Of a stretch of DNA of 32,417 bases, positions 573-32,417 are shown piece by piece (positions within the stretch are counted from its first letter, which is position 1; each line of letters begins with the position of its first letter). The DNA is from a virus, in IMG/VR virus record IMGVR_UViG_3300045988_085672. The stretch is one strand, 5' to 3'. The notes beneath the pieces are model-generated. The model saw nothing but the letters and a program-made list of their open reading frames with translations, was not told the origin of the DNA and ran no database searches. A program made the position numbers and the translations under genes.

Positions 573-977
573 TCACCCTCTCGCACGATCCCGCTTTTTC
601 CACGCGGCTAACATATACTTCACGTCAAGCGCAAGTTTAGACCAATATTCGCAACTGTTCGTTGATATGAAGCCCTGTTCGTGCGAAAGCTCTATGAAAA
701 ATAGAAGCTCCTTGCAATAGGTCATTGCCTTCGCTTGAAGCCTCTGCCGTTCCTTGAATTCCTGCGCGTCCAGAAGGTTTAATTCGTTCGCCTCCAGCGC
801 GCATTCGTAAATATCCACCGCTTTATCCTGTATCCTGTTCACAAGGGTAAATCGGTATTTCTTTGGGAAGCGTTCTGTCGAATTTGTGATCGTGAATGTG
901 TGCTTGATTAAATCTTTGCACTTCACGATTACGTTAAATTCCGAAGGTTCCTTTCTTCCTCGTTCCTGCCTCTGCAT
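573..977 (-). CDS. avd: Accessory variability determinant (Avd), four-helix-bundle family
   Basis: 134 aa, basic and helical. The segment FPKKYRFTLVNRIQDKAVDIYECALEAN resembles the Avd / 23S rRNA-IVS four-helix-bundle family. It lies 22 nt upstream of the TR. Confidence 0.75.
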   Translation of the reverse strand: MQRQERGRKEPSEFNVIVKCKDLIKHTFTITNSTERFPKKYRFTLVNRIQDKAVDIYECALEANELNLLDAQEFKERQRLQAKAMTYCKELLFFIELSHEQGFISTNSCEYWSKLALDVKYMLAAWKKRDRARG

Positions 978-4122: not shown

Positions 4123-7052
4123 TAGGTCATTACCTCCCGCGCGATCATTCTAAACTGCCGCGCCGCCTCGCGCTGTTGCTGGGCGTAGGAAGTTTCGTTT
4201 GCGTAGATGTTTTGCACCACCTCGAAACGTGTTTCCGGTCTGCCGCCTCTGCGCGGGCGCGGATTATCGTTATCGGGAACGGCGTTGTCCGTTGCCTTGC
4301 GGATTGATTTTTCAACGCCTCGCATTTCTCGCCCGAAGCCTTCGCCGATCCCCTGCGCCATATACGCGCCGATACCCGCAAAGACTTTCGACGGGGAAGC
4401 GATCTGCATTTCATCTTCAACCGCCGCGACAATTTCGCGCATCATCGAACGCACGCGGCTTTCAAGCCAACCGGACATATTTTGAAAGCCTTGCCAAATA
4501 CCGCGCACCATATCTTCGCCCGCCGCCGTGAATTCCGATACGAAGGAACGAAGCGCCGTCAAAACAGGCTGTACGATCTGCGCCACCTTGCTTGTGATCT
4601 GCGGGATACCCTGCACCATTCCGGAAGCGATATTCTTATCAATCGTAACGCCCGCTTCAATAAACTTCTGATTTTGCGCGTTGAAGGCGGTAATAATGCT
4701 TTGCGTGATCTGCGGTATCTTCGCGGTAATCTGCGGGATTGCGGTTATCATACCGGAAGAAATATGCCTGTCGAAGTCCTGTCCCGCTTGATTTAGTCTT
4801 TGTGCCTGTGCGGTCAGCCCGCTTATAACCCGCTCGACAATCGCGTTTACGGCTCCGGAAAGCCCTTCGATATTTGCTATGATACCGTCGTTCACCGCGC
4901 GCACCGCTTCGGCGGCTGTAAGCTGTCCCGCTCCGCCCATTGCGGCGGTCATATCAGCCGAAACGCCGTCCATACTTTCCCCGAAGCCTACGCCTACACC
5001 TTCGCCCATATTCGTACCGATTTCGGCGAATACGGTAGAAGGGGAATGAATGCCGAAAAAGCCTTTAATCCCGTCCACAAGGGAAGAAGCCCAGCCCGTT
5101 ACCTTATCCCAAAGCCACGAAGCCGCGCTTGAAATGCCTTCCCATAAACCGTGAAGAAGGTTCGCGCCTGCGTTCACCATTTCACCGACAAGGGAACCGA
5201 ACGCCGATACGATCCCGCTAACAATTTGCGGAACCGCTTTGACAATTTCAACAATGATTGTCGGCAAATTCTGAATGAGCGCCACGAAAAGCTGAACGCC
5301 CGCTTGAATAATCTGCGGGATATTCTGCACAAGCGCGTTTACAATCCCGCTGATAATCTGCGGGATTGCCTGTACGATCGTCGTTATAATCTGCGGAAGC
5401 GCCTGTATCAGCGCCACAAGAAGGTCAATACCCGCTTGAATGATAAGCGGTATATTTTCAAGAAGCGCCGTAATGATCCCGTTTATAATCTCCGGAATAG
5501 CCGCCACAATCGTTGCTATGATTTCCGGAAGGGCGGTAATAAGGGAAGTCAAAAGGTCGATACCCGCTTGAATGATCTGCGGGATCGCCGAAAGCAACCC
5601 GTCAATAAGGCTTGTAATCAGCGTAGGAAGCGCCGCTACAAGAACGGGGATCGCGTTTATGATACCCTGTGCCAGCCCTGTAACAAGCTGTAACGCGGCA
5701 TCTATCAGCAACGGGATATTGTCGATCAGCACTTGCACAATATCGGTTACAAGCTGAACCAGCGAAGGAACAAGCGTCGGCAAGGCTTGCGCTATTCCCG
5801 TCGCAATATTTGCGATCATCTGAAAGGCAAAGTTTATGAAGGTCGGTAACATTTCGGTTAGCTTTTGGATCGCAAACGTTACCATTCCCAGCAATCCGTC
5901 CGTAAACTGTTGCGCCGCGCCTTCTGCACCCGTAAGCGCACCCACCAAGCCGTTTCCGATAAGCTCGACGAACGGCGTAATCTGTTGCAGAAGATCCGCC
6001 GCAAGCTGTTTCAGCTTTGTAACGATCGGTTCTGCGATCGCTCCCAATTCCGCCATTGCGCTATTAAGGGAAGCCGTCGCCTTCTGTGCGTCGATAATAT
6101 CGCCGTTTACCTCTCTGTATTTTTTCGCCGCGTCGGAATATAGCCCGTTCAGCGTTTCCGTAATCAGCGCTTGCCGTTCTTGCTCTGTACTGCACTTATC
6201 AAGGCTGGCTTGAAATTCATCTTCCGAAACGCCCGCCCAATTCAAAGCATCTGCAAGCCCTCCCGTAATCGCGCCCGTTTTCGCGGTTTCGTTTGCGGCT
6301 TCGGTTAAGTTTTCAATAGGCAAGCTGTCGCCGAAGGTCGCATATACGCCCGTTGCTATATCCGTCCACGTCGCAAGCTCTTTTTCGTTGTTCGTAAGTT
6401 TCGCAAGGTGGGCGGCGGCTTCGGTCGCCTGTCCGTCGTCGCCTAAAATGCCGTATAACTCCGTATAGGTGTTCTTTGCATCTTCTGCCGAATGTCCCGC
6501 CGTTGTGAAGCCCGTTTCCAGCTTGCCCATATTTTCGCGGGCTTCGCGCGTACTTTCGGCAAGCCCCAAGAATGCACCCGCCGCCGCTCCGATTGCCGCA
6601 CCCATTGCGGCAACCCCTGCGCCGATCGCTTTTCCCACTTTGCCTACGGTTTCGCCGACGCTCTCCCAATCAATCTTTGACTTTTTCAGTTTTTCGGAAG
6701 TGTCGTCGATTTCCTTTTGAATTTTTACCATATCGGCTTTTGTGTTGTTCAAAGCCGTTTGCATTTTCTGATATGCGGGATTTGTAGGTTCGATCCCGCC
6801 GTCGCGCATTTTCTTCAAGGCATCTTCTGCGGCTTTCGCCTTTTTTGCCTGTTCTTCAAGCGATTTTTTTAGAATATCCTGTTTCCGTGTCAGCGCGTCG
6901 ATGCTTTCCGCATTGTCGCCGAATTCAGCCGTCGCCAGCTTCATTTCCGAACCGATTTCGCGAAGGGAAGTGTTGATACCCTTACAGGCGGAACGGTATT
7001 CTTTTTCGCCTTCAAGAATAATTTGCGATTTGATTTGTTCTTCCTTCGCCAT
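4122..7052 (-). CDS. Tail tape measure protein
   Basis: 976 aa. It has an N-terminal coiled coil, Gly/Ala-rich hydrophobic segments and tandem 44-aa repeats. It lies directly after the G/GT chaperone genes. Confidence 0.92.
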   Translation of the reverse strand: MAKEEQIKSQIILEGEKEYRSACKGINTSLREIGSEMKLATAEFGDNAESIDALTRKQDILKKSLEEQAKKAKAAEDALKKMRDGGIEPTNPAYQKMQTALNNTKADMVKIQKEIDDTSEKLKKSKIDWESVGETVGKVGKAIGAGVAAMGAAIGAAAGAFLGLAESTREARENMGKLETGFTTAGHSAEDAKNTYTELYGILGDDGQATEAAAHLAKLTNNEKELATWTDIATGVYATFGDSLPIENLTEAANETAKTGAITGGLADALNWAGVSEDEFQASLDKCSTEQERQALITETLNGLYSDAAKKYREVNGDIIDAQKATASLNSAMAELGAIAEPIVTKLKQLAADLLQQITPFVELIGNGLVGALTGAEGAAQQFTDGLLGMVTFAIQKLTEMLPTFINFAFQMIANIATGIAQALPTLVPSLVQLVTDIVQVLIDNIPLLIDAALQLVTGLAQGIINAIPVLVAALPTLITSLIDGLLSAIPQIIQAGIDLLTSLITALPEIIATIVAAIPEIINGIITALLENIPLIIQAGIDLLVALIQALPQIITTIVQAIPQIISGIVNALVQNIPQIIQAGVQLFVALIQNLPTIIVEIVKAVPQIVSGIVSAFGSLVGEMVNAGANLLHGLWEGISSAASWLWDKVTGWASSLVDGIKGFFGIHSPSTVFAEIGTNMGEGVGVGFGESMDGVSADMTAAMGGAGQLTAAEAVRAVNDGIIANIEGLSGAVNAIVERVISGLTAQAQRLNQAGQDFDRHISSGMITAIPQITAKIPQITQSIITAFNAQNQKFIEAGVTIDKNIASGMVQGIPQITSKVAQIVQPVLTALRSFVSEFTAAGEDMVRGIWQGFQNMSGWLESRVRSMMREIVAAVEDEMQIASPSKVFAGIGAYMAQGIGEGFGREMRGVEKSIRKATDNAVPDNDNPRPRRGGRPETRFEVVQNIYANETSYAQQQREAARQFRMIAREVMT
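5190..5720 (-). repeat. Four tandem ~44-aa repeats inside the tape measure
   Basis: aa 445..621 read as IPxIIQAG(I/V)xLxxALIxxLPxIIxxIVxAIPxIIxGIxxALxxN, four times in a row. Confidence 0.8.
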
Positions 7053-7262
7053 TTACAACCCTCCTAATATGTCGTCAATATCGGCTTCCGGCTCTTCCGG
7101 CTTGAAGCGATCCGGATTGAATTGTTTGTGTATCCTAAAAAGCGTTAAAATTTTATACGGTGTCATTCGCCATACTTCGGCTTCGCTCCACCGAAGAAGC
7201 GTAACGCCGATATAAAGAAGGCGGGCAAGGTCAATTACTCCTTGCCCGCCGCCGCGTTTTTT
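7053..7262 (-). CDS. -1 frame extension of the tail assembly chaperone (GT-type fusion product)
   Basis: The -1 frame is open from the slippery site. It reads KKRGGGQGVIDLARLLYIGVTLLRWSEAEVWRMTPYKILTLFRIHKQFNPDRFKPEEPEADIDDILGGL and stops at 7053..7055, directly abutting the TMP ATG. Confidence 0.75.
   Translation of the reverse strand, partial: KKRGGGQGVIDLARLLYIGVTLLRWSEAEVWRMTPYKILTLFRIHKQFNPDRFKPEEPEADIDDILGGL
7220..7262 (-). promoter_or_regulatory. Programmed -1 ribosomal frameshift signal
   Basis: Slippery heptamer A_AAA_AAC (7262..7256) in the zero frame gga aaa aac. A 5-nt spacer gcggc follows. Then an 11-bp perfect stem ggcgggcaagg/ccttgcccgcc (7250..7240 with 7230..7220) with a 9-nt loop that contains the G stop codon. 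Confidence 0.75.
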
Positions 7263-7633
7263 CCGTTTTCGTTGTCCTCTCCGTCGTCCTCTTCCTCTTC
7301 ATCGTCGCGGGCGGGCGGTTCTGCCGTCCCGTTGTTTCCCATCGAAAACGCTTTGAAGATAGATGATTTTACTTCAAGGAAATTGCCCGTATGAATGAGC
7401 TTGCCCACCTGTTTTTCGGTAAGCTCTTCTTCTCCGTCCTCTGCGCCCTCGTTCAAAAGCAGGGTAAGAAGCCAGCGAAGGTTTTTAATGCTGTCCTTTC
7501 CGGAAAGCGCCGTATCAAGGCGATCAAAGCCGCCGAATTTGTCTTGCATTTCGTCAATCACGTTCAAACTGAAAAGAAGATGTCTTTCCTTGTCAAGCGT
7601 GATCGGGAAGCGTCCGTCTTTAATTGCACTCAT
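7235..7633 (-). CDS. Tail assembly chaperone (G-like)
   Basis: 132 aa with an acidic C-terminus, between the major tail protein and the TMP. It carries the frameshift site near its 3' end. Confidence 0.75.
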   Translation of the reverse strand: MSAIKDGRFPITLDKERHLLFSLNVIDEMQDKFGGFDRLDTALSGKDSIKNLRWLLTLLLNEGAEDGEEELTEKQVGKLIHTGNFLEVKSSIFKAFSMGNNGTAEPPARDDEEEEDDGEDNENGKNAAAGKE

Positions 7634-17611: not shown

Positions 17612-18367
17612 TCAGCTTTTGCCGTCCTTTGCCGCTCGTTTGCGTTTCCGCTTCGGCGGCTCTAACACATACTTAAAATAAAGGTATCCATACTTTGTGC
17701 TTTTCGTTTCTACTAATATATAGCCCTTCGGCGGGCGCGGCGGCTTGCTCTCTGTGTAAATCCTTTTCGCAACGGTTGGCGTTTCCCGTTCCGGCTTCCG
17801 CGCGTTGCGCGTCTGCTTCCAACGGTGTCCGCCCTGCTCCGGTGTCCAATGGTCGAAAAGGTAATTCGCAAGCCCCGTGTAATCCTGTCCGTGATCTACG
17901 CCGTCGTAATAATTGTGTTCGCGTAGATGGTCGATCCGGACGATACTTCCGTAAATCCATTGTTTCTTGATCGCTTCTTCCGGTACGCCGTCCGAAAGCA
18001 TATGCGCGTGAATTCTGTTCGTGTTCTTGCCGCGTCCTAAATAAATAAAGATCACGGCATCGGGGAAAGCGTATTTCAGCCGCCGCACGAATAGATCGCG
18101 TATCCGCTTTGCTTCCTTGAAGGTATGTACTTCGTTTTCGTCGTCCAGCGTCAGCGTGCTATATAATGAACGCGGGGAAAAGTTTTCATTTACCAGCCGC
18201 GCGTGTTTTCTTCTTGATATTCCGATCCGGTGTTGTTCCCGTTTTTCCTCTGTCTTAAATCGCGGGCGCGGTTCGGCTTTCTTTATATCGGTAAGCCTGT
18301 CCGATATGTTGAAAACTTCCTGTTCGCATACAGCGCCCGAAAATATCCTTCTTTTTACTCTCTGCAT
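17612..18367 (-). CDS. HUH-type rolling-circle replication initiator (Rep)
   Basis: 251 aa. Motif I-like YSTLTLD, HUH motif RIHAHML, and Tyr motif DYTGLANYLFDH, in the canonical order. Confidence 0.6.
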   Translation of the reverse strand: MQRVKRRIFSGAVCEQEVFNISDRLTDIKKAEPRPRFKTEEKREQHRIGISRRKHARLVNENFSPRSLYSTLTLDDENEVHTFKEAKRIRDLFVRRLKYAFPDAVIFIYLGRGKNTNRIHAHMLSDGVPEEAIKKQWIYGSIVRIDHLREHNYYDGVDHGQDYTGLANYLFDHWTPEQGGHRWKQTRNARKPERETPTVAKRIYTESKPPRPPKGYILVETKSTKYGYLYFKYVLEPPKRKRKRAAKDGKS

Positions 18368-18384
18368 ACGTCAAGCCACCTTCC

Positions 18385-18413
18385 TTTGACAAGAAGCCGC
18401 CTTCGTGCTATAA
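18385..18413 (+). promoter_or_regulatory. Perfect consensus sigma-70 promoter on the plus strand
   Basis: TTGACA (18385..18390), exactly 17 nt, TATAAT (18408..18413). Confidence 0.75.
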
Positions 18414-18419
18414 TAACAA

Positions 18420-18500
18420 ATGTATTGAATAGCCTTAAACGGCGCACCCCTCAACGGGGAATAACCGTCCTGTACGCCCATACAGGACGGTTCTTTTTTT
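18420..18500 (+). ncRNA. Candidate ~80-nt antisense small RNA (countertranscript upstream of rep)
   Basis: It is bounded by the consensus promoter and a 12-bp-stem, T7 terminator. No ORF is present. It is antisense to the intercistronic leader between gene 18503..18886 and rep. Confidence 0.55.
18463..18500 (+). terminator. Strong rho-independent terminator, plus-strand specific
   Basis: aaccgtcctgta-cgccca-tacaggacggtt followed by cTTTTTTT. On the minus strand the hairpin is followed by attcccc, with no U tract. Confidence 0.8.
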
Positions 18501-18502
18501 GT

Positions 18503-18886
18503 CTATCCGTTGTTAAGCCCTTCGCCCTGCAAGAAATCTTCGCATTTTGTTTCCTCGCAAGGCTTGAAGCGCATTCCGTCCGCGCAACCGATGCACGGGA
18601 AAGGGCGTATCCCGTCCGGCGCGTATCCTTCGCGGATTTTCTCGCATTCCTCCAGCCGCGCGCATTGATCGCACCAGCACTTCCTGCAATCCCCGATTTC
18701 GGTTTTTACCGGATCGCGCTTTAACGGCTCTTCTGTTTCGTGTACCTCTTTAATATCGTTTGCCGCTTCCATCACGTCGTAAGCGTCCACGCCTTCCTTA
18801 AAGCCCCGAAGGAAGGCGGCGAACATAAACCCGATTGCCGCGCCAGCTTCTTCAAGCGTTGCCGCGTCTATCTTGATTTCGTCCAT
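18503..18886 (-). CDS. Cys-rich hypothetical protein
   Basis: 127 aa with a GAGAGGT RBS. The C-terminal half has about 11 Cys (CRKCWCDQCARLEECE..CIGCADG..). Confidence 0.6.
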   Translation of the reverse strand: MDEIKIDAATLEEAGAAIGFMFAAFLRGFKEGVDAYDVMEAANDIKEVHETEEPLKRDPVKTEIGDCRKCWCDQCARLEECEKIREGYAPDGIRPFPCIGCADGMRFKPCEETKCEDFLQGEGLNNG

Positions 18887-19034: not shown

Positions 19035-19658
19035 TTACCTTCCTTCCCCGAAAACCTCTTCTGGCTGAACGTCCCACGCCGCCGCAATATGCTTCATCAT
19101 ATCCACCGCTTCGGCGCGTTTCTTCATATCCCCGTCAAGGTAAGATTTCAAGATTTCAGATTTCAGAACACAAAGCGGGCGAACGCCCCCGTCCCCGTAG
19201 CAAGCGCTGTAGTAGCTCAGCGTGCCACCGGAATAGACGTTGCGGACGTAAGAATTTTTCGGGCTGTCCGGTGTAGCCGTCCACCACCAAGCGTCCGGAA
19301 GCTCCGGAATGTTGCCGCGAAGAAGCCTGTATTCGTCGCACGTGATAAGCCCGACGCGGACGCGATCGCCGCCGTAGTCCTTCAAACCGTCGTCGGCTGT
19401 CAAGTCTATATCGAAATGCTCGAACATTTCTTCCGGCGCGCCCGCTCCGATCAACTTTTGCAGGAATTCGCCGTTCAAGAACGCGCGAATATCAGACGCG
19501 GCGAAATCGTTTCGGTTCTGCGCGTCAAAAGCGCCGTTTCCGATACACTCCGAAGCAATGCACTTCACCCAGCTTTCGGCGGTCTGAATGATTGTGAATG
19601 CGATCCCGCCGATCGTGATTTCCTGTTTCGGCGCGAAGCCGTGTTTGTTCTCTGTCAT
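19035..19658 (-). CDS. DGR target protein 2 (DUF6273-like / C-type-lectin-like variable domain), 207 aa
   Basis: Start at MTENKHGFAPKQ.. (ATG 19658). It contains ..WWWTATPDSPKNSYVRNVYSGGTLSYYSACYGDGGVRPLCVLKSEIL.., which is paralogous to the VR region of target 1. VR2 is embedded at aa ~137..162. Confidence 0.85.
   Translation of the reverse strand: MTENKHGFAPKQEITIGGIAFTIIQTAESWVKCIASECIGNGAFDAQNRNDFAASDIRAFLNGEFLQKLIGAGAPEEMFEHFDIDLTADDGLKDYGGDRVRVGLITCDEYRLLRGNIPELPDAWWWTATPDSPKNSYVRNVYSGGTLSYYSACYGDGGVRPLCVLKSEILKSYLDGDMKKRAEAVDMMKHIAAAWDVQPEEVFGEGR
19173..19250 (-). repeat. DGR variable repeat 2 (VR2), 78 nt
   Basis: It aligns to TR 449..526. There are 11 mismatches, all at TR plus-strand T (sense A). 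Homology stops abruptly after position 78. Confidence 0.9.
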
Positions 19659-19714
19659 ATTGAAAAGCCCCTTTCTTATATATAATAGGTATATCCGCAC
19701 CCGCTCGCGGGCGT

Positions 19715-21249: not shown

Positions 21250-21907
21250 TGTCCGCCACCTCGCTTTCGTCCCCGACGATCTCGCCCGTAGCAGGATCGA
21301 CATTCAAGGAATATTGTTCCGGTTCAGCGGCACGCGCCAGCGCTTTCTCCCGCTCCCGAAGGTCAAGGGAAAGCGCGCATTGCTCCGTAAGCCTCTTCAA
21401 GTTATCGACAAACTGCTGGCTAATTACGTCATACGGCATAATCACCGCTTGAAGCAGGAAGCCCGCTTTCGCTACGATGTAGGGCGTTCCGCCGGGCGTG
21501 ATCCGCTCGTATAGCTCCAGCACGTCTAAAATATCGGATACGGGCGAAAGATAGCGGCTTTCGATGAACACAAGCCCGCGCCGCGTCTGCAACGGCTTCA
21601 AGGTCTTTCCAGAATAGGCGATCGAAATTGCTTCCCGCTCGACAGGCTTTTCGTTCGCGTCTGTGTCCTCGAAGCTGATTTCCGAAGGAATGCCCGCTAC
21701 TTGAACGAACCAATCTTCCCGCTGTTTTTCCGGAACGTCGAAAATTGTCAAAAGGCTTTCTTTGTCCAGCGCCGGAAGCCCTGTTACCGGATAAGCCGCC
21801 GCGCCGTCGCCGATGTATTGAACAACGCCGCCGCCTTCGGTGTACCGCTCATAAATAACGGCGTATTTGTTCTTCTTGCAGATCGCCGCGATATTTTTAA
21901 TCTTCAT
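21242..21907 (-). CDS. Hypothetical protein
   Basis: 221 aa from MKIKNIAAICKKN.. (ATG 21907, GAGGTGG RBS). I recognise no motif. Confidence 0.6.
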   Translation of the reverse strand: MKIKNIAAICKKNKYAVIYERYTEGGGVVQYIGDGAAAYPVTGLPALDKESLLTIFDVPEKQREDWFVQVAGIPSEISFEDTDANEKPVEREAISIAYSGKTLKPLQTRRGLVFIESRYLSPVSDILDVLELYERITPGGTPYIVAKAGFLLQAVIMPYDVISQQFVDNLKRLTEQCALSLDLREREKALARAAEPEQYSLNVDPATGEIVGDESEVADNA

Positions 21908-22151
21908 CTTCCGCCACCTCGCTTTCGTCTGCGTCGTCCCGCTCCGCAATCGGCGAAAGGTCAACGCGGGGAACGCGGATCGCCAGCGCGATTTGACAAC
22001 CGCAACGCGGACAATCAATCGCATTGAAGCGGGTAGGCGGTTTCGTTAAACACTCCGTAAACCCGCGCGGCTCTTCCGCAATGTAGATTTCTTCTTTTGT
22101 CGGCGTTACGCGGTATCCGCATACGCCGCACGTCTTTTTCTTTGTAAACAT
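21897..22151 (-). CDS. Zinc-ribbon hypothetical protein
   Basis: 84 aa with CGVCG and CPRCGC pairs. It has the conserved GGAGGGCTATTCAATATG initiation region. Confidence 0.6.
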   Translation of the reverse strand: MFTKKKTCGVCGYRVTPTKEEIYIAEEPRGFTECLTKPPTRFNAIDCPRCGCQIALAIRVPRVDLSPIAERDDADESEVAEDED

Positions 22152-22172
22152 ATTGAATAGCCCTCCTTTTGT

Positions 22173-22487
22173 CTAATATCTGCCGTAAACCCGAACGACG
22201 GTGAAGGGCTTGTCCGCCTTCGTCGCCGTTACGATCGCCGAAGTCATAAAGGATACGCGCAAGAAATCCCGCGCCGCCCGTTTTGCAAGCCTCCACGTAA
22301 TCATTCGCGCGTTAGGTTCCTGCATTGCGTCGCCGTCCAGCGGATACTCGCAAATAAGAACCGTGTTCCCGAACGGTCGCCGCGCTGGGCGTTCCTTCAT
22401 AAATTCTTTGTTGCCCTCTTTGCACTTCACAATTTCAAGCGCCTTCGGAAACTGCCATCCGCAGTCCTGCTTCTTTTCTTTTGCCAT
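22173..22487 (-). CDS. Hypothetical protein
   Basis: 104 aa with an AAAGGGG RBS. Confidence 0.55.
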   Translation of the reverse strand: MAKEKKQDCGWQFPKALEIVKCKEGNKEFMKERPARRPFGNTVLICEYPLDGDAMQEPNARMITWRLAKRAARDFLRVSFMTSAIVTATKADKPFTVVRVYGRY

Positions 22488-22774: not shown

Positions 22775-23353
22775 CTAATCGTTATAGGGATTTTGCAAGC
22801 ACCAATCCCACGTTTCAGCGTCTTTCCAGCCGATCGTGAAATGATTGTTCCGCCCGTCGCCTGTGAAATACAGGTATTCAGCCGGAAGGACGCGCCCGAC
22901 GTTCGTTTCCCCGTCCCGCTCTGCGTGATAGCGGATCAGAACGTCAGCCGCCAGCGTCGCAAGCTCCGGAAGAACGGGATAATCTGTCGAATATCCGGCG
23001 AACTGATACGGCGCTTCTAATACCTCCAGCACGGTATCCGGAAAGCGGGGATCGTCAACGCGGTTCAGCACGCACCAAACGCACGCGGCTTTTTCCATAT
23101 CCGAAGCAATCCCGTGCGCTTCTCCGTAAAGCATCTTTGCAAGCGCTTCAACCTCTGCCGCGTCCGGTATGTAGTCCGTTTCTTCCGTTTCCGGTGCAAG
23201 CGTCAAGATTGGGGAAGGGGATATAAGCGCCGTAGGTTCTCCCGAATACTGTTCCGTTTCCGGTGTCCCGCTCCACGGCATAAATGCGACAAGCGGGATC
23301 GCGACGATTACCATTGAAAGCGCCGCCGCGATCCGTCTTTGTTTCCTCTTCAC
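22775..23353 (-). CDS. SleB-type cell wall hydrolase (Hydrolase_2) with N-terminal signal anchor
   Basis: 192 aa. The TM segment is IAAALSMVIVAIPLVAF. The segment ..LAKMLYGEAHGI..EKAACVWCVLNRVDDPRFPDTVLEVLEAPYQF.. matches the SleB family pattern. Confidence 0.7.
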   Translation of the reverse strand: MKRKQRRIAAALSMVIVAIPLVAFMPWSGTPETEQYSGEPTALISPSPILTLAPETEETDYIPDAAEVEALAKMLYGEAHGIASDMEKAACVWCVLNRVDDPRFPDTVLEVLEAPYQFAGYSTDYPVLPELATLAADVLIRYHAERDGETNVGRVLPAEYLYFTGDGRNNHFTIGWKDAETWDWCLQNPYND

Positions 23354-23877
23354 AACGCCACCCCGCTATCCGCTTCAAGGGACAGCCACCATTCGGGATT
23401 GTTTCGGAAGCGTTCGTTCGGGCAAGCGTCGCAATTCTCCGCCACGCACCCGCTACAATATCGCTTTTGAAATTCCGTATCCCACGGCGCTTCTAATACC
23501 GGAAGGGAACGCAAGAACCGCCCAAGCCCTTGCGCGTCCGCCGTGAGTGCTTCAAAGTTTGTTTTCCCGCTCGACGTTGCCCGCCTTTCTGCGCTTGCCG
23601 CCATACCCAGCGCCGCCCGCTGTTTCAAGACGGCGTAATTCTCGAACCACATTTTGTAAAGCTCCGCTTCCGTTTTCCGGATCGCGTGTTCAAGAACCCG
23701 CACCGCCGCTTCGGACAAGTCCGCGATCGTTTCTTTGATCCGCTTATAGTCCGCATATATGGCGCAATATTGCTCATAGGTGTAAAGGTAAGATGTGCAA
23801 TCGTTCTTCGGGCACTCCTTTTTCAAGGCTTCGCCGAAATCCGCCAGCGGCTTGAAAAGAATTAAAGTGTCTGTCAT
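23350..23877 (-). CDS. Hypothetical protein
   Basis: 175 aa. It has the conserved AGAGGGCTATTCAATATG initiation region and a C-terminal Cys cluster (CSGCVAENCDAC). Confidence 0.6.
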   Translation of the reverse strand: MTDTLILFKPLADFGEALKKECPKNDCTSYLYTYEQYCAIYADYKRIKETIADLSEAAVRVLEHAIRKTEAELYKMWFENYAVLKQRAALGMAASAERRATSSGKTNFEALTADAQGLGRFLRSLPVLEAPWDTEFQKRYCSGCVAENCDACPNERFRNNPEWWLSLEADSGVAL

Positions 23878-23910
23878 ATTGAATAGCCCTCTTTCTTGAA
23901 TTGCGGCGAA

Positions 23911-24255
23911 TTAGTTTTCCGCCGCCCTCTTTTTTCTTTCGTTCTCTATGTTTAGGTTCATTTTCCAATAGTGAAAATGATTAAACATTTCTTGCGTGCA
24001 AAGAAGCCCGTCCGCCCGCCGAACGTCAATTCCCATTGTGATTTGCAGGAATTCGGCAAGCCCACAAAACCGCCCACAAAGATTTGTGATGGCGTTCAAT
24101 TTCTGTTCTTCGGTGTAATCCCTGTTTTCGTATGCCGCTTTGCCCTCTGCAACATACTTTTGCATACGGTCGATCAACTCGATAACGATTTCTTCTTTCG
24201 TGTCCTGCAAACCCTTGTCGCTTACGGCAAGCGCTCCTAACTGATACTTTTTCAT
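23911..24255 (-). CDS. Hypothetical protein
   Basis: 114 aa with the conserved GGATGGCTATTCAATATG initiation region. Confidence 0.6.
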   Translation of the reverse strand: MKKYQLGALAVSDKGLQDTKEEIVIELIDRMQKYVAEGKAAYENRDYTEEQKLNAITNLCGRFCGLAEFLQITMGIDVRRADGLLCTQEMFNHFHYWKMNLNIENERKKRAAEN

Positions 24256-24275
24256 ATTGAATAGCCATCCTTTCG

Positions 24276-24527
24276 CTACTGATTTGCGGCGCGTCTGTTG
24301 CCCCTGCGCCTAATGTTTTCTTGTGCCGTCGTCTGTGCAAGATCGGCGCTATATACAGGACGCTTGTTTTCGTCAAGCTCTCCCGTGTAGCCGCGTTTAA
24401 GCTCTTCGTAAATAGCGGCAACGCTTCTTCCGATCTTCGCGGCAATATCCACCGCCCTTGTTCCTTTGCCGTAAAGCTCTTCAATTTCTCGGCGCTGGTC
24501 GAACGTCAAATACGAATATCCGTCCAT
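24276..24527 (-). CDS. Stand-alone IS30-type N-terminal HTH protein
   Basis: Start at MDGYSYLTFDQRREIEELYGKGTRAVDIAAKIGRSVAAIYEELKRG.. (ATG 24527, AGGAGG RBS). It resembles the HTH_38 domain of IS30 transposases, and no catalytic domain follows. Confidence 0.6.
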   Translation of the reverse strand: MDGYSYLTFDQRREIEELYGKGTRAVDIAAKIGRSVAAIYEELKRGYTGELDENKRPVYSADLAQTTAQENIRRRGNRRAANQ

Positions 24528-24564
24528 TTTGCAAGCCTCCTTTCGCCGCTTTGAATAAAAAAAT

Positions 24565-24598
24565 AAAGCAGGAAAACCGTTTCGGCTTTCTCTGCTTT
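24565..24598 (-). terminator. Hairpin plus T tract downstream of the transposase gene
   Basis: Minus strand reads aaagcagagaaagccg-aaa-cggttttcctgcttt (imperfect stem) followed by ATTTTTTTATT. Confidence 0.5.
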
Positions 24599-24600
24599 TA

Positions 24601-24629
24601 ATGTTACTTCTTTCATTGCTAAAAGTCAA
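24601..24629 (-). promoter_or_regulatory. Candidate promoter for the HTH gene
   Basis: Minus strand reads TTGACT, 17 nt, TAACAT. Confidence 0.4.
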
Positions 24630-24670: not shown

Positions 24671-25705
24671 TTACGCGGCGGCAATATGGACGGTGAACAA
24701 GTCGTTTGAAGTCGCATATCCTAAAATTTCGCGGGGATAATTATTGATCCAAGCTTCGACGCGCCGAATATATGCGGCGGTTACTTTCCGGAAGTCCGTT
24801 CCTTTTGGAAGGAACCGCCGTATCATTTTGTTTATATTCTCATTCGTTCCTCTCTCGAATGCGCTGTAAGGGTGGCAATAGTAAGCCTTCGTGCGCTTCC
24901 GATCCTTCCCGTAAACAGAACGTTCAATTCCGGCGCAGTCTGCGAATTCTGATCCATTGTCAAACGTAATGCTTTTGAATATCCTCGAAAATCGTTTCCC
25001 GTAACGCCGTTCCAGCTTGTTCAACGCCGCCACAATGCTTGCGGAAGTCTGATCCGGTATCTTCATAATGATTTCTTGCCGTGTCAACCGTTCCGAAAGC
25101 ACAAACAAGGCTTCCTTTGTCTTTTTCTTTCCGCATACGCAATCGCCTTCCCAATGCCCGAAGGTTTTTCGCTCTCCGATCTCCGGATCGCGTCTTTCTA
25201 TGCTTTCGCCCGCCGACGTGCGGGCGGATTTTTTGCGATCCACCTTGTCGTACTTCCTTTTGCGTTTTCCTTTTTCCGGCAAATTCTCGCGGCTGATCCC
25301 GTAAAATATTCCTTTGTCTATGTAATTATAAATCGTCTTTTCGCTGATCTCTGTTTTGAAGGTCAGCCCCAGCCGTTTAATTTCTCCGACAACGGCGGCG
25401 GGGGAATAACCTTCTTCGCCGATTTTCTTTTCGATAAAGGCGGCTAATTCGTAATCATTCCCGATCTTCAAGTCGCCGCCTTTCGCTTTTAGGTTTTCTT
25501 CATAGCGTTGTTGTGCGATTTCCGGCGAATAGCGTTCTTCCGTCGTTAAGTCGGAATTCAAATGCGTATAGGTTCCTCGCTTGATTTCTCTGTATATAGT
25601 TGTGTTATGGACGTGCAGACGGTCAGCGATCTTGCAGGGCTTCAAGCCCTCTTTCAACGCTTTTTCGATTTTAAGGCGATCTGTCCACGTTAAGTGCTTG
25701 TGCAT
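24671..25705 (-). CDS. IS30-family DDE transposase (possible phage integrase function)
   Basis: 344 aa with an N-terminal HTH (LTWTDRLKIEKAL..IADRLHVHNTTIYREIKRG). The catalytic triad context is HWEGD, FDNGSEF and ERGTNEN. A GGAAGGAGG RBS precedes the ATG. Confidence 0.88.
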   Translation of the reverse strand: MHKHLTWTDRLKIEKALKEGLKPCKIADRLHVHNTTIYREIKRGTYTHLNSDLTTEERYSPEIAQQRYEENLKAKGGDLKIGNDYELAAFIEKKIGEEGYSPAAVVGEIKRLGLTFKTEISEKTIYNYIDKGIFYGISRENLPEKGKRKRKYDKVDRKKSARTSAGESIERRDPEIGERKTFGHWEGDCVCGKKKTKEALFVLSERLTRQEIIMKIPDQTSASIVAALNKLERRYGKRFSRIFKSITFDNGSEFADCAGIERSVYGKDRKRTKAYYCHPYSAFERGTNENINKMIRRFLPKGTDFRKVTAAYIRRVEAWINNYPREILGYATSNDLFTVHIAAA

Positions 25706-25761: not shown

Positions 25762-25944
25762 CTACTTTGCCCGCGCCGCTTCGCAATACGAAGCAATGAA
25801 TTTTTTAATTTCGGTTGTCGGCGTAGTCCCGTTTTCTTTACAAACCTTCTTGAATTCTTCCAGCACCTCCGGACGAAGATCGAGCGGGAAGCGCGCGTAA
25901 TGCTTCCGAATGTGTTTTTCTTGTGCCGAATAATCTTTTCCCAC
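25762..25944 (-). CDS. Small ribbon-helix-helix-like DNA-binding protein (putative)
   Basis: 60 aa with a GTG start 8 nt after GGAGG. RFPLDLRPEVLEEFKKVCKENGTTPTTEIKKFI fits a beta-strand, helix, helix pattern. Confidence 0.4.
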   Translation of the reverse strand: MGKDYSAQEKHIRKHYARFPLDLRPEVLEEFKKVCKENGTTPTTEIKKFIASYCEAARAK

Positions 25945-26438: not shown

Positions 26439-26503
26439 TGTGTTAAAGGTAAGAATGGATGAATTCTGCCTTGAAAGTTTACAATTCAAAGGAGGTATTC
26501 ACA

Positions 26504-27100
26504 ATGAAGAAGCCGATCATTTTGTGGATCGTCGCGGCGCTATTCCTCTTTTGCTCTGTTCCGTTTTTCGGTCAAGGCAGTATTATTGAAGGCGTTTGCG
26601 GGATCGCCATAGCCGCCGCGCTGGGTGTTTTCGGATACGTTACGATGAAAAGGACGCAAGCCGCCGAACTTGCAAAAAAAGATACGGAAAATGAAGAAGC
26701 ACCCGTTGCCCTAAATGATGAAATTGCGCCGTCCGAATGTTCCGGAAATCTCGAAGCCCAGCAGGATAGTTCGTACGAATTTTTACGTACAAAGATCGCT
26801 GGCGTTACTTTTAAGGACGGCAGGAAAAGCCGTCAAACGATTATTCGCCGCTTGTATTGGAAGGACGAACCCTTCGACAAAAACGAAGCCGAAGTTGTCC
26901 TTGAACGCGGCGAATACGAAGGCAAGCCCGCTTTTGCTGTAATCTTAAACGGTCAAAAAGCTGGATACGTTCCCGCCGAACACGTCCAATTCATTGAAGA
27001 AAATTTCGCGCGTTGCGACGGTGTAACGCATATCGAAGCATATTGCGGTGCAAACGACATTTACGGCGCTGAAATTATTATCCGTTTCCGAAAGCCCTAA
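26504..27100 (+). CDS. Membrane-anchored HIRAN-like domain protein (moron-like, own promoter and terminator)
   Basis: Start at MKKPIILWIVAALFLF.. (AGGAGG RBS). It has two N-terminal hydrophobic helices. The C-terminal segment ..IAGVTFKDGRKSRQTII..EVVLERGEYEGKPAFAVILNGQKAGYVPAEH.. resembles HIRAN. Confidence 0.5.
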   Translation: MKKPIILWIVAALFLFCSVPFFGQGSIIEGVCGIAIAAALGVFGYVTMKRTQAAELAKKDTENEEAPVALNDEIAPSECSGNLEAQQDSSYEFLRTKIAGVTFKDGRKSRQTIIRRLYWKDEPFDKNEAEVVLERGEYEGKPAFAVILNGQKAGYVPAEHVQFIEENFARCDGVTHIEAYCGANDIYGAEIIIRFRKP

Positions 27101-29284: not shown

Positions 29285-29848
29285 TTATGTCTCCCTTCCT
29301 GTTACTTCTTCCCATTGCCACAAGGAAGGCGTATCGGGCGGATACACGCAATTTGGCATATCCGCTTTTGCAAGATAGACTTTTCCTTTGTAGCTGTAAT
29401 ATTTCCCGTTCTGGACGTTTACGACGATCCCCGCCGTTTCCGGATAGGGGATCGGATCGTCAATCGTTCCCGTGTGTGTAAGCTCCACAAGGCGGTAATA
29501 AGCGAAGGTCGTTTCAACGGGATAGGAAACGGCGTTCGACGTGTGCGCGGCGATAATCTCGTAATATCTCCCGTTATACTTGATGATTTCGCCCACAGTG
29601 TTATAGGCGTGCGCGTCCTCGTATTCCGGATATTCGATAACCTCCGCCGATTGCAGGATCATAGCGTCGGAAATGATGTTCGTTTTTGCCGCGCGATCCT
29701 GTGCGATCTGCGCCTTGAACGACAACGCAAGAAGGGCGGCGGTACTTTCGCCCGCTGTCTTTACTTCTTGTGTTTCTTTCTTTACTTCCTGCAATTCCTT
29801 CTTGATTTCCGCGTTTCCGCCGCCGTCTTTGTTATGTTTCACGCTCAT
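29285..29848 (-). CDS. Putative carbohydrate-binding (CBM5/12-like repeats) protein coupled to DGR target 1
   Basis: 187 aa. The ATG overlaps the target-1 stop (ATGA). It has two aromatic-rich repeats: ..YNTVGEIIKYNGRYYEIIAAH.. and ..KYYSYKGKVYLAKADMP..PSLWQW.. Confidence 0.4.
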   Translation of the reverse strand: MSVKHNKDGGGNAEIKKELQEVKKETQEVKTAGESTAALLALSFKAQIAQDRAAKTNIISDAMILQSAEVIEYPEYEDAHAYNTVGEIIKYNGRYYEIIAAHTSNAVSYPVETTFAYYRLVELTHTGTIDDPIPYPETAGIVVNVQNGKYYSYKGKVYLAKADMPNCVYPPDTPSLWQWEEVTGRET

Positions 29849-31581
29849 TCAAAATTACCTCCGATCCCCGATACCCAGCACGCGGTCAGCGCGTCGCCGC
29901 GCTCCACGGTTACGCGGATATTCAAGCCAAATTGAACCGCCGTGTTGGTTTTGTTCTTGAACACGTGCGCCAGTCCTGCGATAACTGCGTTTGTGCAATC
30001 CTCCCAAATAGGCGCTACGTCGTAAGGATTGTTGCACGCTTCAACCTTAAACGTGCCGCCCGCCGGAATATCCCTGTTTACTTTGATATTGCACCGCGTC
30101 GGCTGTCTGTTTGCCTCCAGCGGCTCCGAAAGGGAAATTACAAAGCTGTTGATCGCCTTTGTGAACGTGAGTGTTCGCGTTGCGCTGTTTCCGGCGCTAT
30201 CGGTCGCGACAATCTCGATCGTGTGCTGGGCGTTTGTCAATCCCGTAAACGTGTTCCCGCTTACGGAAAGGGTAAGCGTTGCGCCCAGCGCGATATTATT
30301 TCGCGTGTTGAACGTGCTTCCGTCGATCTTTTCTACAACGTTTACAACGTCCTTATCCGGATCAGTAACGCTATATTCATAGGTGAAATCCTCTCGCTTC
30401 ACGCCAAGATCAGCGTTCTGCCCGCTGATAACGGGCGGCTGATTGTGAATTACCGCGATCGCTCCGCTTGTCGTGTACGCGGAAGAATTGCCCGCCGTGT
30501 CAACCGCCTTCACGCGGTATTGCAGGGTGTTCCACGCCGTCGATACCATTTCCGAAAATGTGCGCGCGGCGGAACTCTGAACCTGTGTCCACGATCCGCT
30601 GTTTGCGCTCCGCTCGAAAACATAGGTCAGCGCATCGCCGTCCGGATCGGTCGCCGCCGCGCAAGAAATTTCGATATTCTGCCCGCTGTAACATTGTTTC
30701 GGCGCTGTAATGCTGGGTGGCGCGGAAGGCGCGGCGTTGTAGATGATTTCATAATTCCCGCTTGAATTCGGATTGTCAGATACCAAGATTGAAGATTTCA
30801 GATTACAAAGCGGGCGAACGCCCCTGCTCCCGTTGTAAGCGCTGATGTAGTTCAGCGTGCCATCGGAATTGACGTAGCGGACGTACTGCGCGCTCGACGA
30901 ATGAGGCGTGCGAAGCCACCAATACCAGCCCTTTGAAGTTGTAAAATTGCTGTTTGTGTATTCCGAATTGCTTACGCATTCCGGCGTAGGATAGGCGACG
31001 CGGGAAGCGTCGTTGCTGAATAGGGCAAGGCGTGTGCCTTCTGCGATCCCGTTTTCGTTTGCAAGCCCCACTTCGGTGGTAGATGCAAGAAACATTTTCG
31101 CCGTGAAGGTTTCATAACTTCCGCCGTCCGTCGAAGATTTTACGACGGTAAGCGTTGTGTTCATAAGCTCCGCAACGAATTTCGGATCAAGCATAGCAAG
31201 GAAGCCCGCCCAAGCGTCGTATTCGTTGTAGTTGTCCCATACGTTCGCATTCGTCGGCGGCGCGTCCTGTCCGTGCTTTGCGCTGTACCATTTGCCCGCC
31301 GCCGCGTTGCTGTTCAGCCATTGCAAAATGTTTGAATGAATATGCCTGTTGTTGCCGTAATTCTTCCGGTCGCTGTTGCTGTTGCTCGGTTCCTTTGCGT
31401 CCGAACACATAAGCTGGATAATCTTTTCGGCGATCAGCGTAACGGAATTCGCCGGATACCCGCTATGGTTCTTGTCCGCAATCTTGAATACGATCTTCGC
31501 ACCGAAGCGCGATTGATACGCCGGAAGAACCGGAACTTCGATTTTTGTTCCCACGGCAAGGGAACTTAATGCTTTTGACAT
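29845..31581 (-). CDS. DGR target protein 1: tail-fibre/receptor-binding-like protein with an N-terminal DUF6273-like variable domain and C-terminal FN3/Ig-like domains
   Basis: 578 aa from MSKALSSLAVGTKIEV.. (ATG 31581, AGGAGG RBS 7 nt upstream). It overlaps the RT stop by 16 nt. VR1 lies at aa ~225..258 (..WYWWLRTPHSSSAQYVRYVNSDGTLNYISAYNGSRGVRPL..). About 320 aa of beta-rich repeats follow. Confidence 0.85.
   Translation of the reverse strand: MSKALSSLAVGTKIEVPVLPAYQSRFGAKIVFKIADKNHSGYPANSVTLIAEKIIQLMCSDAKEPSNSNSDRKNYGNNRHIHSNILQWLNSNAAAGKWYSAKHGQDAPPTNANVWDNYNEYDAWAGFLAMLDPKFVAELMNTTLTVVKSSTDGGSYETFTAKMFLASTTEVGLANENGIAEGTRLALFSNDASRVAYPTPECVSNSEYTNSNFTTSKGWYWWLRTPHSSSAQYVRYVNSDGTLNYISAYNGSRGVRPLCNLKSSILVSDNPNSSGNYEIIYNAAPSAPPSITAPKQCYSGQNIEISCAAATDPDGDALTYVFERSANSGSWTQVQSSAARTFSEMVSTAWNTLQYRVKAVDTAGNSSAYTTSGAIAVIHNQPPVISGQNADLGVKREDFTYEYSVTDPDKDVVNVVEKIDGSTFNTRNNIALGATLTLSVSGNTFTGLTNAQHTIEIVATDSAGNSATRTLTFTKAINSFVISLSEPLEANRQPTRCNIKVNRDIPAGGTFKVEACNNPYDVAPIWEDCTNAVIAGLAHVFKNKTNTAVQFGLNIRVTVERGDALTACWVSGIGGNFE
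30808..30909 (-). repeat. DGR variable repeat 1 (VR1), 102 nt
   Basis: It aligns to the full TR 449..550. There are 8 mismatches, all at TR plus-strand T (sense A). Confidence 0.93.
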
Positions 31582-32417
31582 TTTTCCGCCTCCTTTGAAT
31601 TGAAAAGCCTGTTGTAATAGTGATCCGTTCGCCGGATCAAGTGATAACAATTTCCCTTTGCGGCGTGTCCCCGCCAGCTTTTGTAAGATTGTTCGACGGT
31701 CGCCGTTATGATTTTGCCCCGCTCCACAAGTCCGCGCATTTTCTTCAATTTGCGCTTCATATTGTTCTTGCTTCTGCGGCGCACCTTCCGGATTACCGCG
31801 CCCGTTTCGGTCAAGTAAGTGTGAAATCCCAAGAAATCCACCCCGTTCCGAAGCGGGTAAATGTTCGTTTTGTTGTTCAAGGACAAGCCGATCGCGGCAA
31901 CGTGTTTTTCGATCTCCGCGCGGCAATACTGCAAATAGGCTTTATCTTCGTGTATCAAGAAGAAATCGTCCATATATCTTCCGTAGTATTTAATGCCAAG
32001 CTTTTCCTTGATGAAGTGATCTAAATTATTGAGGTAAAGAAGGGCGAAAAGCTGTGAAGATTGATTGCCGATCGGAATTCCGACGTTCCCTTCTGTGCTG
32101 TCGATTATCATTTCGACAAGCCACAAAACGTCCGGATCGGTTATCTTCCTGCGGATTAAGGTTTTTAACACGTCGTGCCTAATGGAATAGAAGTATTTTG
32201 ATATATCACCCTTCAATATCCACCCGTCAATCCCGTTTTTACGGTAAAACCTCCGCAAGAATTCTTGAAGCCTGTCTAACCCGTAATGCGTACCTTTGCC
32301 CACTTGCGAAGCGTAGTTATCCGTTATGAACGATCTTGTAAGGATCGGTTCAAGCACGTTATCGCAAAGCGAATGTTGAACAACCTTGTCTTTATAGCTG
32401 TTCGACATAACCACGCG
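31566..32417 (-). CDS. DGR reverse transcriptase, C-terminal part (continues from 1..281 on the circle)
   Basis: The motif IGNQSSQ is the DGR-clade [I/L/V]GxxxSQ signature. The catalytic box is YMDD (RYMDDFFLIHED). The C-terminal segment ..SYKSWRGHAAKGN.. is also present. Confidence 0.92.
   Translation of the reverse strand, partial: RVVMSNSYKDKVVQHSLCDNVLEPILTRSFITDNYASQVGKGTHYGLDRLQEFLRRFYRKNGIDGWILKGDISKYFYSIRHDVLKTLIRRKITDPDVLWLVEMIIDSTEGNVGIPIGNQSSQLFALLYLNNLDHFIKEKLGIKYYGRYMDDFFLIHEDKAYLQYCRAEIEKHVAAIGLSLNNKTNIYPLRNGVDFLGFHTYLTETGAVIRKVRRRSKNNMKRKLKKMRGLVERGKIITATVEQSYKSWRGHAAKGNCYHLIRRTDHYYNRLFNSKEAEKCQKH
32341..32417. repeat. Terminal overlap copy B (identical to 1..77)
   Basis: Read directly, 77/77 identical. 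Confidence 0.95.

Follow-up and report, generated by a model that had tools for sequence, protein, structure and literature searches.

The window analysed here is the whole stretch of 32,417 nucleotides (nt) from the IMG/VR virus record IMGVR_UViG_3300045988_085672, in which nearly all long open reading frames (ORFs) are located on the minus strand. A plus-strand unit that consists of a promoter, a predicted small RNA and an intrinsic terminator occupies the 135-nt gap separating the stop codon of the gene 18503-18886(-) from the ATG of the rep gene at 18367(-) and is antisense to both flanking minus-strand genes. A preliminary description of this DNA had proposed an antisense RNA unit at rep, and this proposal was right; the main content of the unit, however, is probably a trans-acting 5' seed for early genes that share a sequence tag at their start codons. 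The locus comprises the following features, where class 1 denotes related loci with the same type of RNA:

18386..18391, plus strand: -35 hexamer TTGACA, of which TTGAC is invariant in 15 distinct class-1 variants
18406..18414, plus strand: extended -10 element TGcTATAAT, with TGCTA.A invariant in the alignment and the spacer variable
18420..18500, plus strand: predicted small RNA of about 78-81 nt, with a predicted fold, no Rfam or tRNA match and no ORF
18423..18434, plus strand: 5' seed TATTGAATAGCC with the core TTGAATAGC, a repeated sequence predicted to be unpaired, the core being invariant
18447..18459, plus strand: small internal hairpin of the predicted fold, CCCC-UCAAC-GGGG
18463..18500, plus strand: intrinsic terminator with a 12-bp stem, a 6-nt loop and a T7 tract, with compensatory pairs in relatives
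18368..18502, minus strand: intercistronic leader of the early operon, containing the RNA complement GGCUAUUCAAUAcau (a start-site look-alike without AUG) and the Shine-Dalgarno (SD) sequence of rep at 18376-18384
17612..18367, minus strand: rep, encoding a replication-initiation protein of 251 amino acids (aa), PHROG 3584

The -35 hexamer is separated by a 17-nt spacer from the -10 hexamer TATAAT (18409-18414), which is extended by a TG at positions -15/-14. Perfect TTGACA-N17-TATAAT sites occur twice in the 32.4-kb window, at 18386-18414(+) and 26029-26001(-), as opposed to a mean of 0.01 in dinucleotide-preserving shuffles, none of 100 of which contained two or more. The perfect promoter and the improbability of a 12/12 match by chance, both put forward in the preliminary description, were thereby confirmed. 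The terminator stem (18463-18474/18481-18492) includes six GC pairs and is directly followed by the T7 tract CTTTTTTT, which extends to 18500. Such a hairpin had been placed about 45 nt downstream of the expected transcription start; stem and T7 tract were found as described, with a distance of about 42 nt instead. When the hairpin is read on the minus strand, AUUCCCC comes next and no T tract is present, so that it represents an intrinsic terminator on the plus strand only, as had been claimed. A predicted start at 18420-18422 and an end within the T tract result in an RNA of 78-81 nt, in agreement with the previous estimate of about 80 nt, and the predicted fold has a free energy of -29.9 kcal/mol (z = -4.4 relative to 200 shuffles). 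The only plus-strand ORF between promoter and terminator is ATG-TAT-TGA. A small protein or type I toxin encoded in the gap was rejected; the minus-strand ORFs of 30-45 aa are short and unconserved. No match was obtained in the whole window at the Rfam gathering score, the region 18300-18600 yielded only noise (E-values of 3-7 in a scan up to E 10), and no tRNA or tmRNA was detected in the small RNA region. The RNA would be fully complementary to the leader between gene 18503-18886 and rep, as stated before. The -35 hexamer does not overlap the ribosome-binding region of rep, contrary to the preliminary description; it abuts the complement of the rep SD sequence with a gap of 1 nt. These data clearly indicate that the unit of promoter, RNA and terminator is a real feature well beyond chance.

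The 5' 12-mer TATTGAATAGCC turned out to be the most repeated 12-mer of the window, with four exact copies, all on the plus strand, and one further copy with a single mismatch. When up to two mismatches were allowed, 10 matches were counted, compared with a mean of 2.2 in shuffled sequences, and none of 100 shuffles reached 10. The three exact copies outside the RNA gene and the single-mismatch copy each represent the reverse complement of the SD-spacer-ATG region of a minus-strand early gene. The same 14-mer start region precedes the genes 21897-22151 (AAAGGAGGGCUAUUCAAUAUG), 23350-23877 and 23911-24255, and the start region GGCUUUUCAAUAUG of gene 19035-19658 deviates by one mismatch from the seed complement. 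The sequence common to the four gene starts is GGCUAUUCAAUAUG, and its spacer is absent in all of the other approximately 50 genes of the window. The start regions are located 1.2-5.8 kb from the RNA gene and constitute the predicted trans targets:

22149..22166, minus strand: target 1, start of gene 21897-22151 (84-aa CxxC protein), an exact 12-mer complement with a predicted duplex energy of -21.2 kcal/mol
23875..23892, minus strand: target 2, start of gene 23350-23877 (175 aa), predicted duplex energy -20.8 kcal/mol
24253..24268, minus strand: target 3, start of gene 23911-24255 (114 aa), predicted duplex energy -18.7 kcal/mol
19656..19673, minus strand: target 4, start of gene 19035-19658 (207-aa DUF6273 protein), one mismatch, predicted duplex energy -16.7 kcal/mol

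The duplex energies were obtained from a scan of the first 22 nt of the RNA against 99 candidate start regions. When the first 30 nt were compared with the entire minus strand instead, the GC-rich middle of the RNA dominated the result, and the scan was uninformative. The median over the 99 regions was -8.6 kcal/mol, with a standard deviation of 3.1. Five start regions reached -14 kcal/mol or lower, compared with a mean of 0.76 for shuffled seeds; the fifth of them belongs to an internal ORF of 60 codons at 30037 that is probably not a gene. The predicted pairing spans the 3' part of the SD sequence, the entire spacer and the start codon, with the pairs at the start codon being two G-U wobbles. 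The first 9-10 nt of the RNA from the window seed TATTGAATAGCC onwards are unpaired in the predicted structure, and positions 1-12 of the RNA have a probability of being unpaired of 0.9-1.0. Among eight representative RNAs that were folded, the first 8-12 nt yielded probabilities of 0.7-1.0, mostly 0.9-1.0.

Relatives of the locus were collected by a search with the Rep protein, which resulted in 80 viral contigs and 48 bacterial genome contigs, in total 128 loci. The hosts belong to the Oscillospiraceae, the Acutalibacteraceae, the Ruminococcaceae and related Clostridia. A relative with 98% Rep identity resides on a 452-kb contig of a metagenome-assembled genome of Ca. Faeciplasma, and a class-1 unit was detected in the cultured isolate Neglectibacter caecimuris M00184 (NZ_JAWXXK010000004.1, approximately 553-562 kb). 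Since some of the loci lie deep in large chromosomal contigs, this group of phages is considered to be temperate. The class-1 relatives, which share 72-100% Rep identity and the same RNA type, contain the unit at the same place, and the distance from the -10 element to the rep start is 35-39 nt in the rep-bearing loci found by a pattern scan. An alignment of 15 distinct class-1 variants from phages with 72-100% Rep identity revealed three invariant blocks, namely TTGAC of the -35 hexamer, TGCTA.A of the extended -10 element and TTGAATAGC just past the predicted start, whereas promoter spacer and RNA body vary. The terminator stem comprises 17 consensus pairs, eight of which have changed on both sides in a compensatory manner, and the strand that carries the T tract is the same throughout. 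Promoter and terminator are therefore kept in relatives that share the rep module, a check that had been named in the preliminary description. Most class-1 lineages, the window not among them, form a longer hairpin in which the anti-SD sequence CUCCUUU is paired with the internal purine run AAAGGGGAG. An inverted repeat between promoter spacer and RNA body was observed in some class-1 lineages (GCCGTAA/TTACGGC in L022) and is not present in the window.

An antisense unit is located upstream of the rep homologs in about 46% of the 128 loci, and about half of the loci are without it. The units at this position occur in at least three forms (classes 1, 2 and 3) along with several singletons, and the RNA bodies of these forms lack evident similarity, which fits a role tied to the position. 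Rep relatives at 62-73% identity contain no such element upstream. Additionally, the loci L038-L044 and L047 (70-73% Rep identity) are devoid of the antisense promoter and keep a GC-rich hairpin, GCCCCGGCGGC-n7-GCCGCCGGGGT, before rep. The pattern scan also provided matches in four loci without rep, L179, L188, L196 and L198. Of these, L188 contains a genuine class-1 unit whose neighbour is a HUH-like rep of another kind: the unit is retained and the window's rep is replaced by a gene without similarity detectable by tblastn (E > 1e-5). In this locus (5601-7408) the unit follows the same Cys-rich upstream gene, and the next gene, approximately 400 nt away, encodes a HUH-like protein of 297 aa with the motif RVHHHVIL. 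This arrangement indicates that the RNA gene has travelled with the upstream module and not with rep. The matches in L179, L196 and L198 were rejected as class-1 units, as they look like unrelated promoter-RNA units or chance matches.

In the class-1 lineages with enough sequence, the complementary 5' segment begins 0-4 nt from the predicted +1 position, and each class-1 RNA is complementary to one to four start regions of its own genome. The longest complementary run comprises 12-19 nt in all class-1 lineages and 7-9 nt at the single-mismatch DUF6273 sites. Two target families are kept across lineages, the DUF6273 protein in 14 loci representing all class-1 lineages and the CxxC protein in 8 loci, and the other targets are variable cassettes. 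RNA and targets match in a lineage-specific manner: the window lineage is characterized by ..AGCC.., as opposed to ..AGCUCC.. elsewhere, and the L191/L085 lineage contains a G, where the others contain an A, before UUGAA in the RNA, matching ..UUCAACAUG in the targets. The cognate pairings are the longest ones in most lineages.

Moreover, the class-2 RNA occupies the same position and has the 5' end GGUAUAGCAAUC, which matches a different shared start region, AAAGGAGAUUGCUAUACCAUG. The latter sequence precedes one to four ORFs in the contigs that carry the class-2 RNA. In the class-1 loci 123 type-1 start sites and no type-2 site were counted, in the class-2 loci no type-1 site and seven type-2 sites, and in the loci without a unit five loose type-1 matches and no type-2 site. 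The loose matches in loci without a unit were attributed to chance, as they are situated in coding DNA without an SD sequence and disappeared under a stricter pattern. With this SD-linked pattern, the start motif was found in 18 of the 32 class-1 loci versus 1 of the 96 others. In classes 1 and 2 alike, the RNA starts with a 5' seed of 8-12 nt that is predicted to be unpaired and continues with a hairpin and the terminator. A comparison of the class-1 with the class-2 target proteins by blastp detected no homology. Class 2 is an independent replicate and a stronger test than the co-variation within class 1.

The class-3 units (L086, L087, L091, L092, L099, L101, L105, L108, L109, L111 and L112) are located about 40-190 nt upstream of rep homologs and contain the promoter TTGACA-17-TATACT. 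This promoter is bracketed by a 9-10 bp inverted repeat, AAGGCGGTAA ... TTACCGCCTT, so that the rep leader could fold around it, and the RNA carries the sequence of the rep-proximal arm.

The anatomy of the unit, its conservation, the complementarity between seed and start sites, and the specificity with respect to lineage and class were computed directly. The interpretation favoured on this basis, to which a probability of roughly 65% is assigned, is that of a trans-acting small RNA that would block translation initiation, with or without an added cis effect on rep. According to this model, the host sigma-A RNA polymerase would transcribe the RNA of about 80 nt from the consensus promoter in the direction opposite to the neighbouring phage genes. 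The transcript would consist of the single-stranded 5' seed UAUUGAAUAGCC, the short internal hairpin and the terminator hairpin, and the seed would pair in trans with the initiation regions of the genes 21897-22151, 23350-23877, 23911-24255 and 19035-19658. Such a pairing should block binding of the 30S subunit and may trigger cleavage of the duplex. The mRNA of the early operon would itself hold a perfect complement of the 80-nt RNA, which could be a target in cis, where cutting may insulate or destabilise the rep cistron; alternatively, this leader complement may sequester the RNA at times of strong early transcription and thereby represent a built-in sponge. Moreover, the head-on consensus promoter abutting the rep SD sequence could hinder read-through into rep. 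As the promoter requires no phage factor and relatives reside in bacterial chromosomes, synthesis of the RNA probably takes place in the lysogen. It might then provide a layer of immunity or timing at the level of translation, in the manner of c4 of phage P1 and CI of phage P4. The sequence features typical of trans-acting small RNAs are found in the unit, comprising a predicted and conserved promoter and terminator of its own, a conserved seed predicted to be accessible, and co-varying predicted targets above chance.

The position of the unit next to rep also suits a pure cis countertranscript, an unlikely explanation in our assessment, in which the RNA would pair only with the rep leader and lower Rep by attenuation, translational block or RNase III cleavage. 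The rep product matches PHROG 3584 'replication initiation protein' with an E-value of 1.5e-39 and displays the HUH-like motif RIHAHM, and its match to Pfam REP_ORF2-G2P is below the cutoff. The countertranscripts (ctRNAs) of rolling-circle plasmids, RNAI/II of pT181 and RNAII of pMV158, are specified by strong constitutive promoters and end at terminators, and their layout had been recognised at the locus in the preliminary description. This view holds insofar as the predicted short RNA has its own promoter and terminator, is a perfect antisense sequence of the leader that directly precedes a replication-initiator gene, and is conserved in relatives. The occurrence of dissimilar RNAs at the same position in about 46% of the loci likewise reveals the fixed position and free sequence typical of cis-antisense RNAs, and the class-3 inverted repeat would give the rep leader alternative pairings. 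The layout differs, however, in two respects: the plasmid ctRNAs act on the rep start region or on an attenuator by overlapping or remodelling it, and the plasmid rep genes have promoters of their own. In the window the end of the RNA complement, at 18420, is separated by 53 nt from the downstream rep AUG and by 36 nt from the SD sequence, leaving the latter uncovered. No minus-strand attenuator resembling an intrinsic terminator was found between the RNA complement and rep (18368-18502), and the minimum free energy fold of the leader did not contain a hairpin followed by a U tract. Promoter-like sites with at least 9 of 12 matching positions were absent from the minus strand between 18400 and 22100, the nearest being located at 22175 and 24629; rep appears to be part of a long operon without a dedicated promoter. 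In addition, pairing in cis needs no given sequence, yet the 5' 9 nt of the RNA are invariant and match other gene starts. The class-1 unit of L188 lies at its distance of about 400 nt from a rep that is dissimilar to that of the window, and half of the rep relatives do without the unit.

Still less probable is the assumption that the minus-strand copy of the motif is the functional entity, as a ribosome standby site, a site for a protein that binds start sites, or a recombination linker, with the promoter being incidental or acting by transcriptional interference. The copy in the leader is oriented like the real start regions, and the portion of it that resembles an SD sequence retains this resemblance in all variants; identical start regions precede non-homologous cassettes, as in recombination joints; and RNA polymerase on the consensus promoter would, by geometry, cover the DNA of the rep SD sequence and ATG. 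This explanation is difficult to reconcile with a leader copy that lacks a start codon in the variants examined and contains no conserved ORF, or with the clear constraint on the promoter hexamers, the TG and the strand-specific T tract. It would also leave unexplained, if the RNA content were irrelevant, why the motif is positioned 0-4 nt from the predicted start in both RNA classes. Finally, a replication-origin element is very improbable. In that case the HUH-type Rep would nick or bind the DNA at the motif, and the promoter would activate the origin or the RNA would serve as a primer. The unit adjoins rep, the hairpin could extrude as a cruciform, and TTGAATAGC loosely resembles the nick sites of f1 (CTTT/AATAGTGG) and pT181 (..CT/AATAGCCGG). 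Nevertheless, the motif is fully explained by its match to gene starts and recurs at four of these, which are not origins, Rep relatives at 62-73% identity lack the element, class 2 combines a different motif with a closely related Rep, and the sequence of the terminator stem changes freely by compensatory substitution. The nick-site idea was also downgraded because the palindromes TATTGAATA, GCTATgttgaATAGC and TTCAATATTGAA around the motif are not conserved between lineages.

Several observations weigh against the trans-acting RNA. Within class 1 the difference between cognate and non-cognate pairing is modest (14.2 versus 12.7 nt), and the L188 RNA fits its own targets worse than other RNAs do. 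Owing to the kinship of the class-1 loci, the co-occurrence of RNA and start motif could partly reflect common descent. The seed pairing of the window lineage comprises 12-14 bp and is AU-rich. For class 3, no start-site matches were detected within the 4-kb flanks, which speaks more for a cis role linked to rep. Identical start regions precede non-homologous cassettes, which also fits recombination linkers at module borders, and the functional element could instead be the minus-strand motif copy present in the rep leader. The target genes are without an assigned function. Moreover, the transcript, its ends and the repression are predictions; that the RNA is transcribed, that it would repress and when it would act are deduced from sequence features. 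As to the module borders, L002/L138, L142, L134 and L175 contain the same intergenic region and tagged start, ...AAATACGAAAGGAGCTATTCAATATG, followed by non-homologous genes of 169, 109, 76 and 175 aa, with the mosaic joint exactly at the ATG. The start tag may additionally serve as a linker for recombination, by which the RNA would gain control of new cassettes.

Considered functionally, the proposed RNA would most closely resemble c4 of P1/P7 and CI of P4; it also resembles sar of P22 and, by its position next to the replication gene, OOP of lambda. The c4 and CI RNAs are phage immunity RNAs of approximately 70-80 nt that act in trans by base pairing with early transcripts at more than one site. 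The c4 RNA of P1 covers the icd ribosome-binding site, and matched differences in RNA and target define P1 and P7 as heteroimmune phages. The window resembles these systems in that more than one site of the predicted early transcript, including ribosome-binding sites, is complementary to the RNA and in that RNA and targets change together, which is seen here as complementarity only. In contrast to c4 and CI, which are processed from the same-sense transcript that bears the targets, the unit has its own promoter and terminator on the opposite strand. Whereas c4 targets one leader, the start regions of four separate genes would be addressed here, and neither a match to the Rfam C4 model nor an enterobacterial host is involved, the hosts being Clostridia. 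The sar RNA of P22 is likewise short and antisense, is framed by a promoter and a terminator of its own in an intercistronic region, runs against the operon and blocks a ribosome-binding site, as is proposed here; it differs by acting on the site that it overlaps (ant), as the overlapped site in the window is a look-alike without a start codon. OOP of lambda is a 77-nt RNA that overlaps the 3' end of cII, triggers RNase III cleavage and is made in lysogens. It is comparable in being encoded directly upstream of the replication gene O, in its constitutive promoter and in being antisense to the early rightward transcript, and OOP is not known to contain a multi-gene seed. The small RNAs of the RsaE/RoxS type in Firmicutes also contain a conserved unpaired seed that pairs with several mRNAs at or near ribosome-binding sites. 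That temperate phages encode trans-acting RNAs is exemplified by PreS of lambda (bioRxiv 10.1101/2024.10.31.621285). RsaE/RoxS and PreS differ from the predicted RNA, as they recognise host genes by short imperfect matches, and the RNA of the window would recognise the phage's own genes by a 14-nt tag that is identical among them and co-varies with the seed.

With respect to the remaining features of the window, its first 77 bases are identical to the last 77 bases (1-77 and 32341-32417), which indicates a circularly closed assembly and a complete genome with a size of approximately 32,340 bp. A diversity-generating retroelement (DGR) was identified in the window, including a bAvd-like gene at 573-977(-) with a match to Pfam PF22296 below the cutoff. 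A 102-nt repeat is present three times (449-550, 19173-19274 and 30808-30909), and the copy adjacent to avd is the likely template repeat. The two other copies are 92% identical in the large DUF6273/Ig gene 29845-31581 and 75% identical in the 207-aa DUF6273 gene 19035-19658, and the reverse transcriptase of the DGR was not located in the window. This layout matches the two-target DGR of the related phage nd12 (PMC10743442). Gene 19035-19658, one of the predicted targets of the RNA, is the ortholog of the nd12 DGR 'target2' gene, and the matched start region suggests that the true start of target2 is an internal ATG, yielding 212 aa in nd12 instead of the 297 aa annotated. In the literature searched, no description of the RNA was found, and the sole paper citing nd12 concerns its DGR.

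The spacer of the second perfect promoter of the window (26029-26001(-)) is the palindrome ATATACG-ca-CGTATAT and likely represents an operator. A strong terminator at 26100-26069(-) lies ahead of this promoter, and an ORF of 60 aa at 25762-25944 and a further terminator at 25758-25732(-) follow it. The region 26100-25732(-) has the appearance of the principal early promoter or switch region and faces the plus-strand gene 26459-27100. The latter gene, described as HIRAN-like in the preliminary description, produced no Pfam or PHROG match at the thresholds used and could, by its position, encode the prophage repressor. The gene 24671-25705(-) encodes an IS30-family DDE transposase (phrog_4646, E-value 8e-134) and is found at the same place in nd12, which suggests that it is probably the phage integrase and not a passenger insertion sequence. 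Gene 24276-24629(-) duplicates the N-terminal HTH_38 domain of this transposase.

A wider and tentative extension of the trans-acting RNA, possible rather than likely, is an RNA 'address code' in the phages of gut Clostridia, in which a constitutive small RNA and identical SD-spacer-AUG tags would be combined with a sponge, heteroimmunity groups and the recruitment of cassettes. The small RNA and the tagged early genes, including that of the DGR-diversified lectin-fold protein, would then constitute a circuit of immunity or timing at the translational level. The antisense copy in the early operon before rep would be the sponge, so that strong early transcription would free the tagged genes and license replication. 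The seed/tag pairs of classes 1 and 2 would set heteroimmunity groups, and new cassettes would become part of the regulon through recombination that places them behind a tagged start.

To our knowledge, almost all that has been learned about regulatory RNAs in temperate phages comes from a few enterobacterial models, namely P1, P4, P22 and lambda. The unit described here provides a clear, testable RNA circuit with two independent versions of seed and tag in abundant uncultured phages of the human gut that are associated with Oscillospiraceae, Acutalibacteraceae and Ruminococcaceae, and the isolate Neglectibacter caecimuris M00184 with its class-1 unit makes experiments feasible. If confirmed, the RNA would represent a new RNA family, it would explain the identical ribosome-binding regions on unrelated genes in these phages, and it would tie RNA control to both the replication module and a DGR target gene. 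For Clostridia, it would also represent a translational switch of natural origin that is orthogonal and can be reprogrammed.

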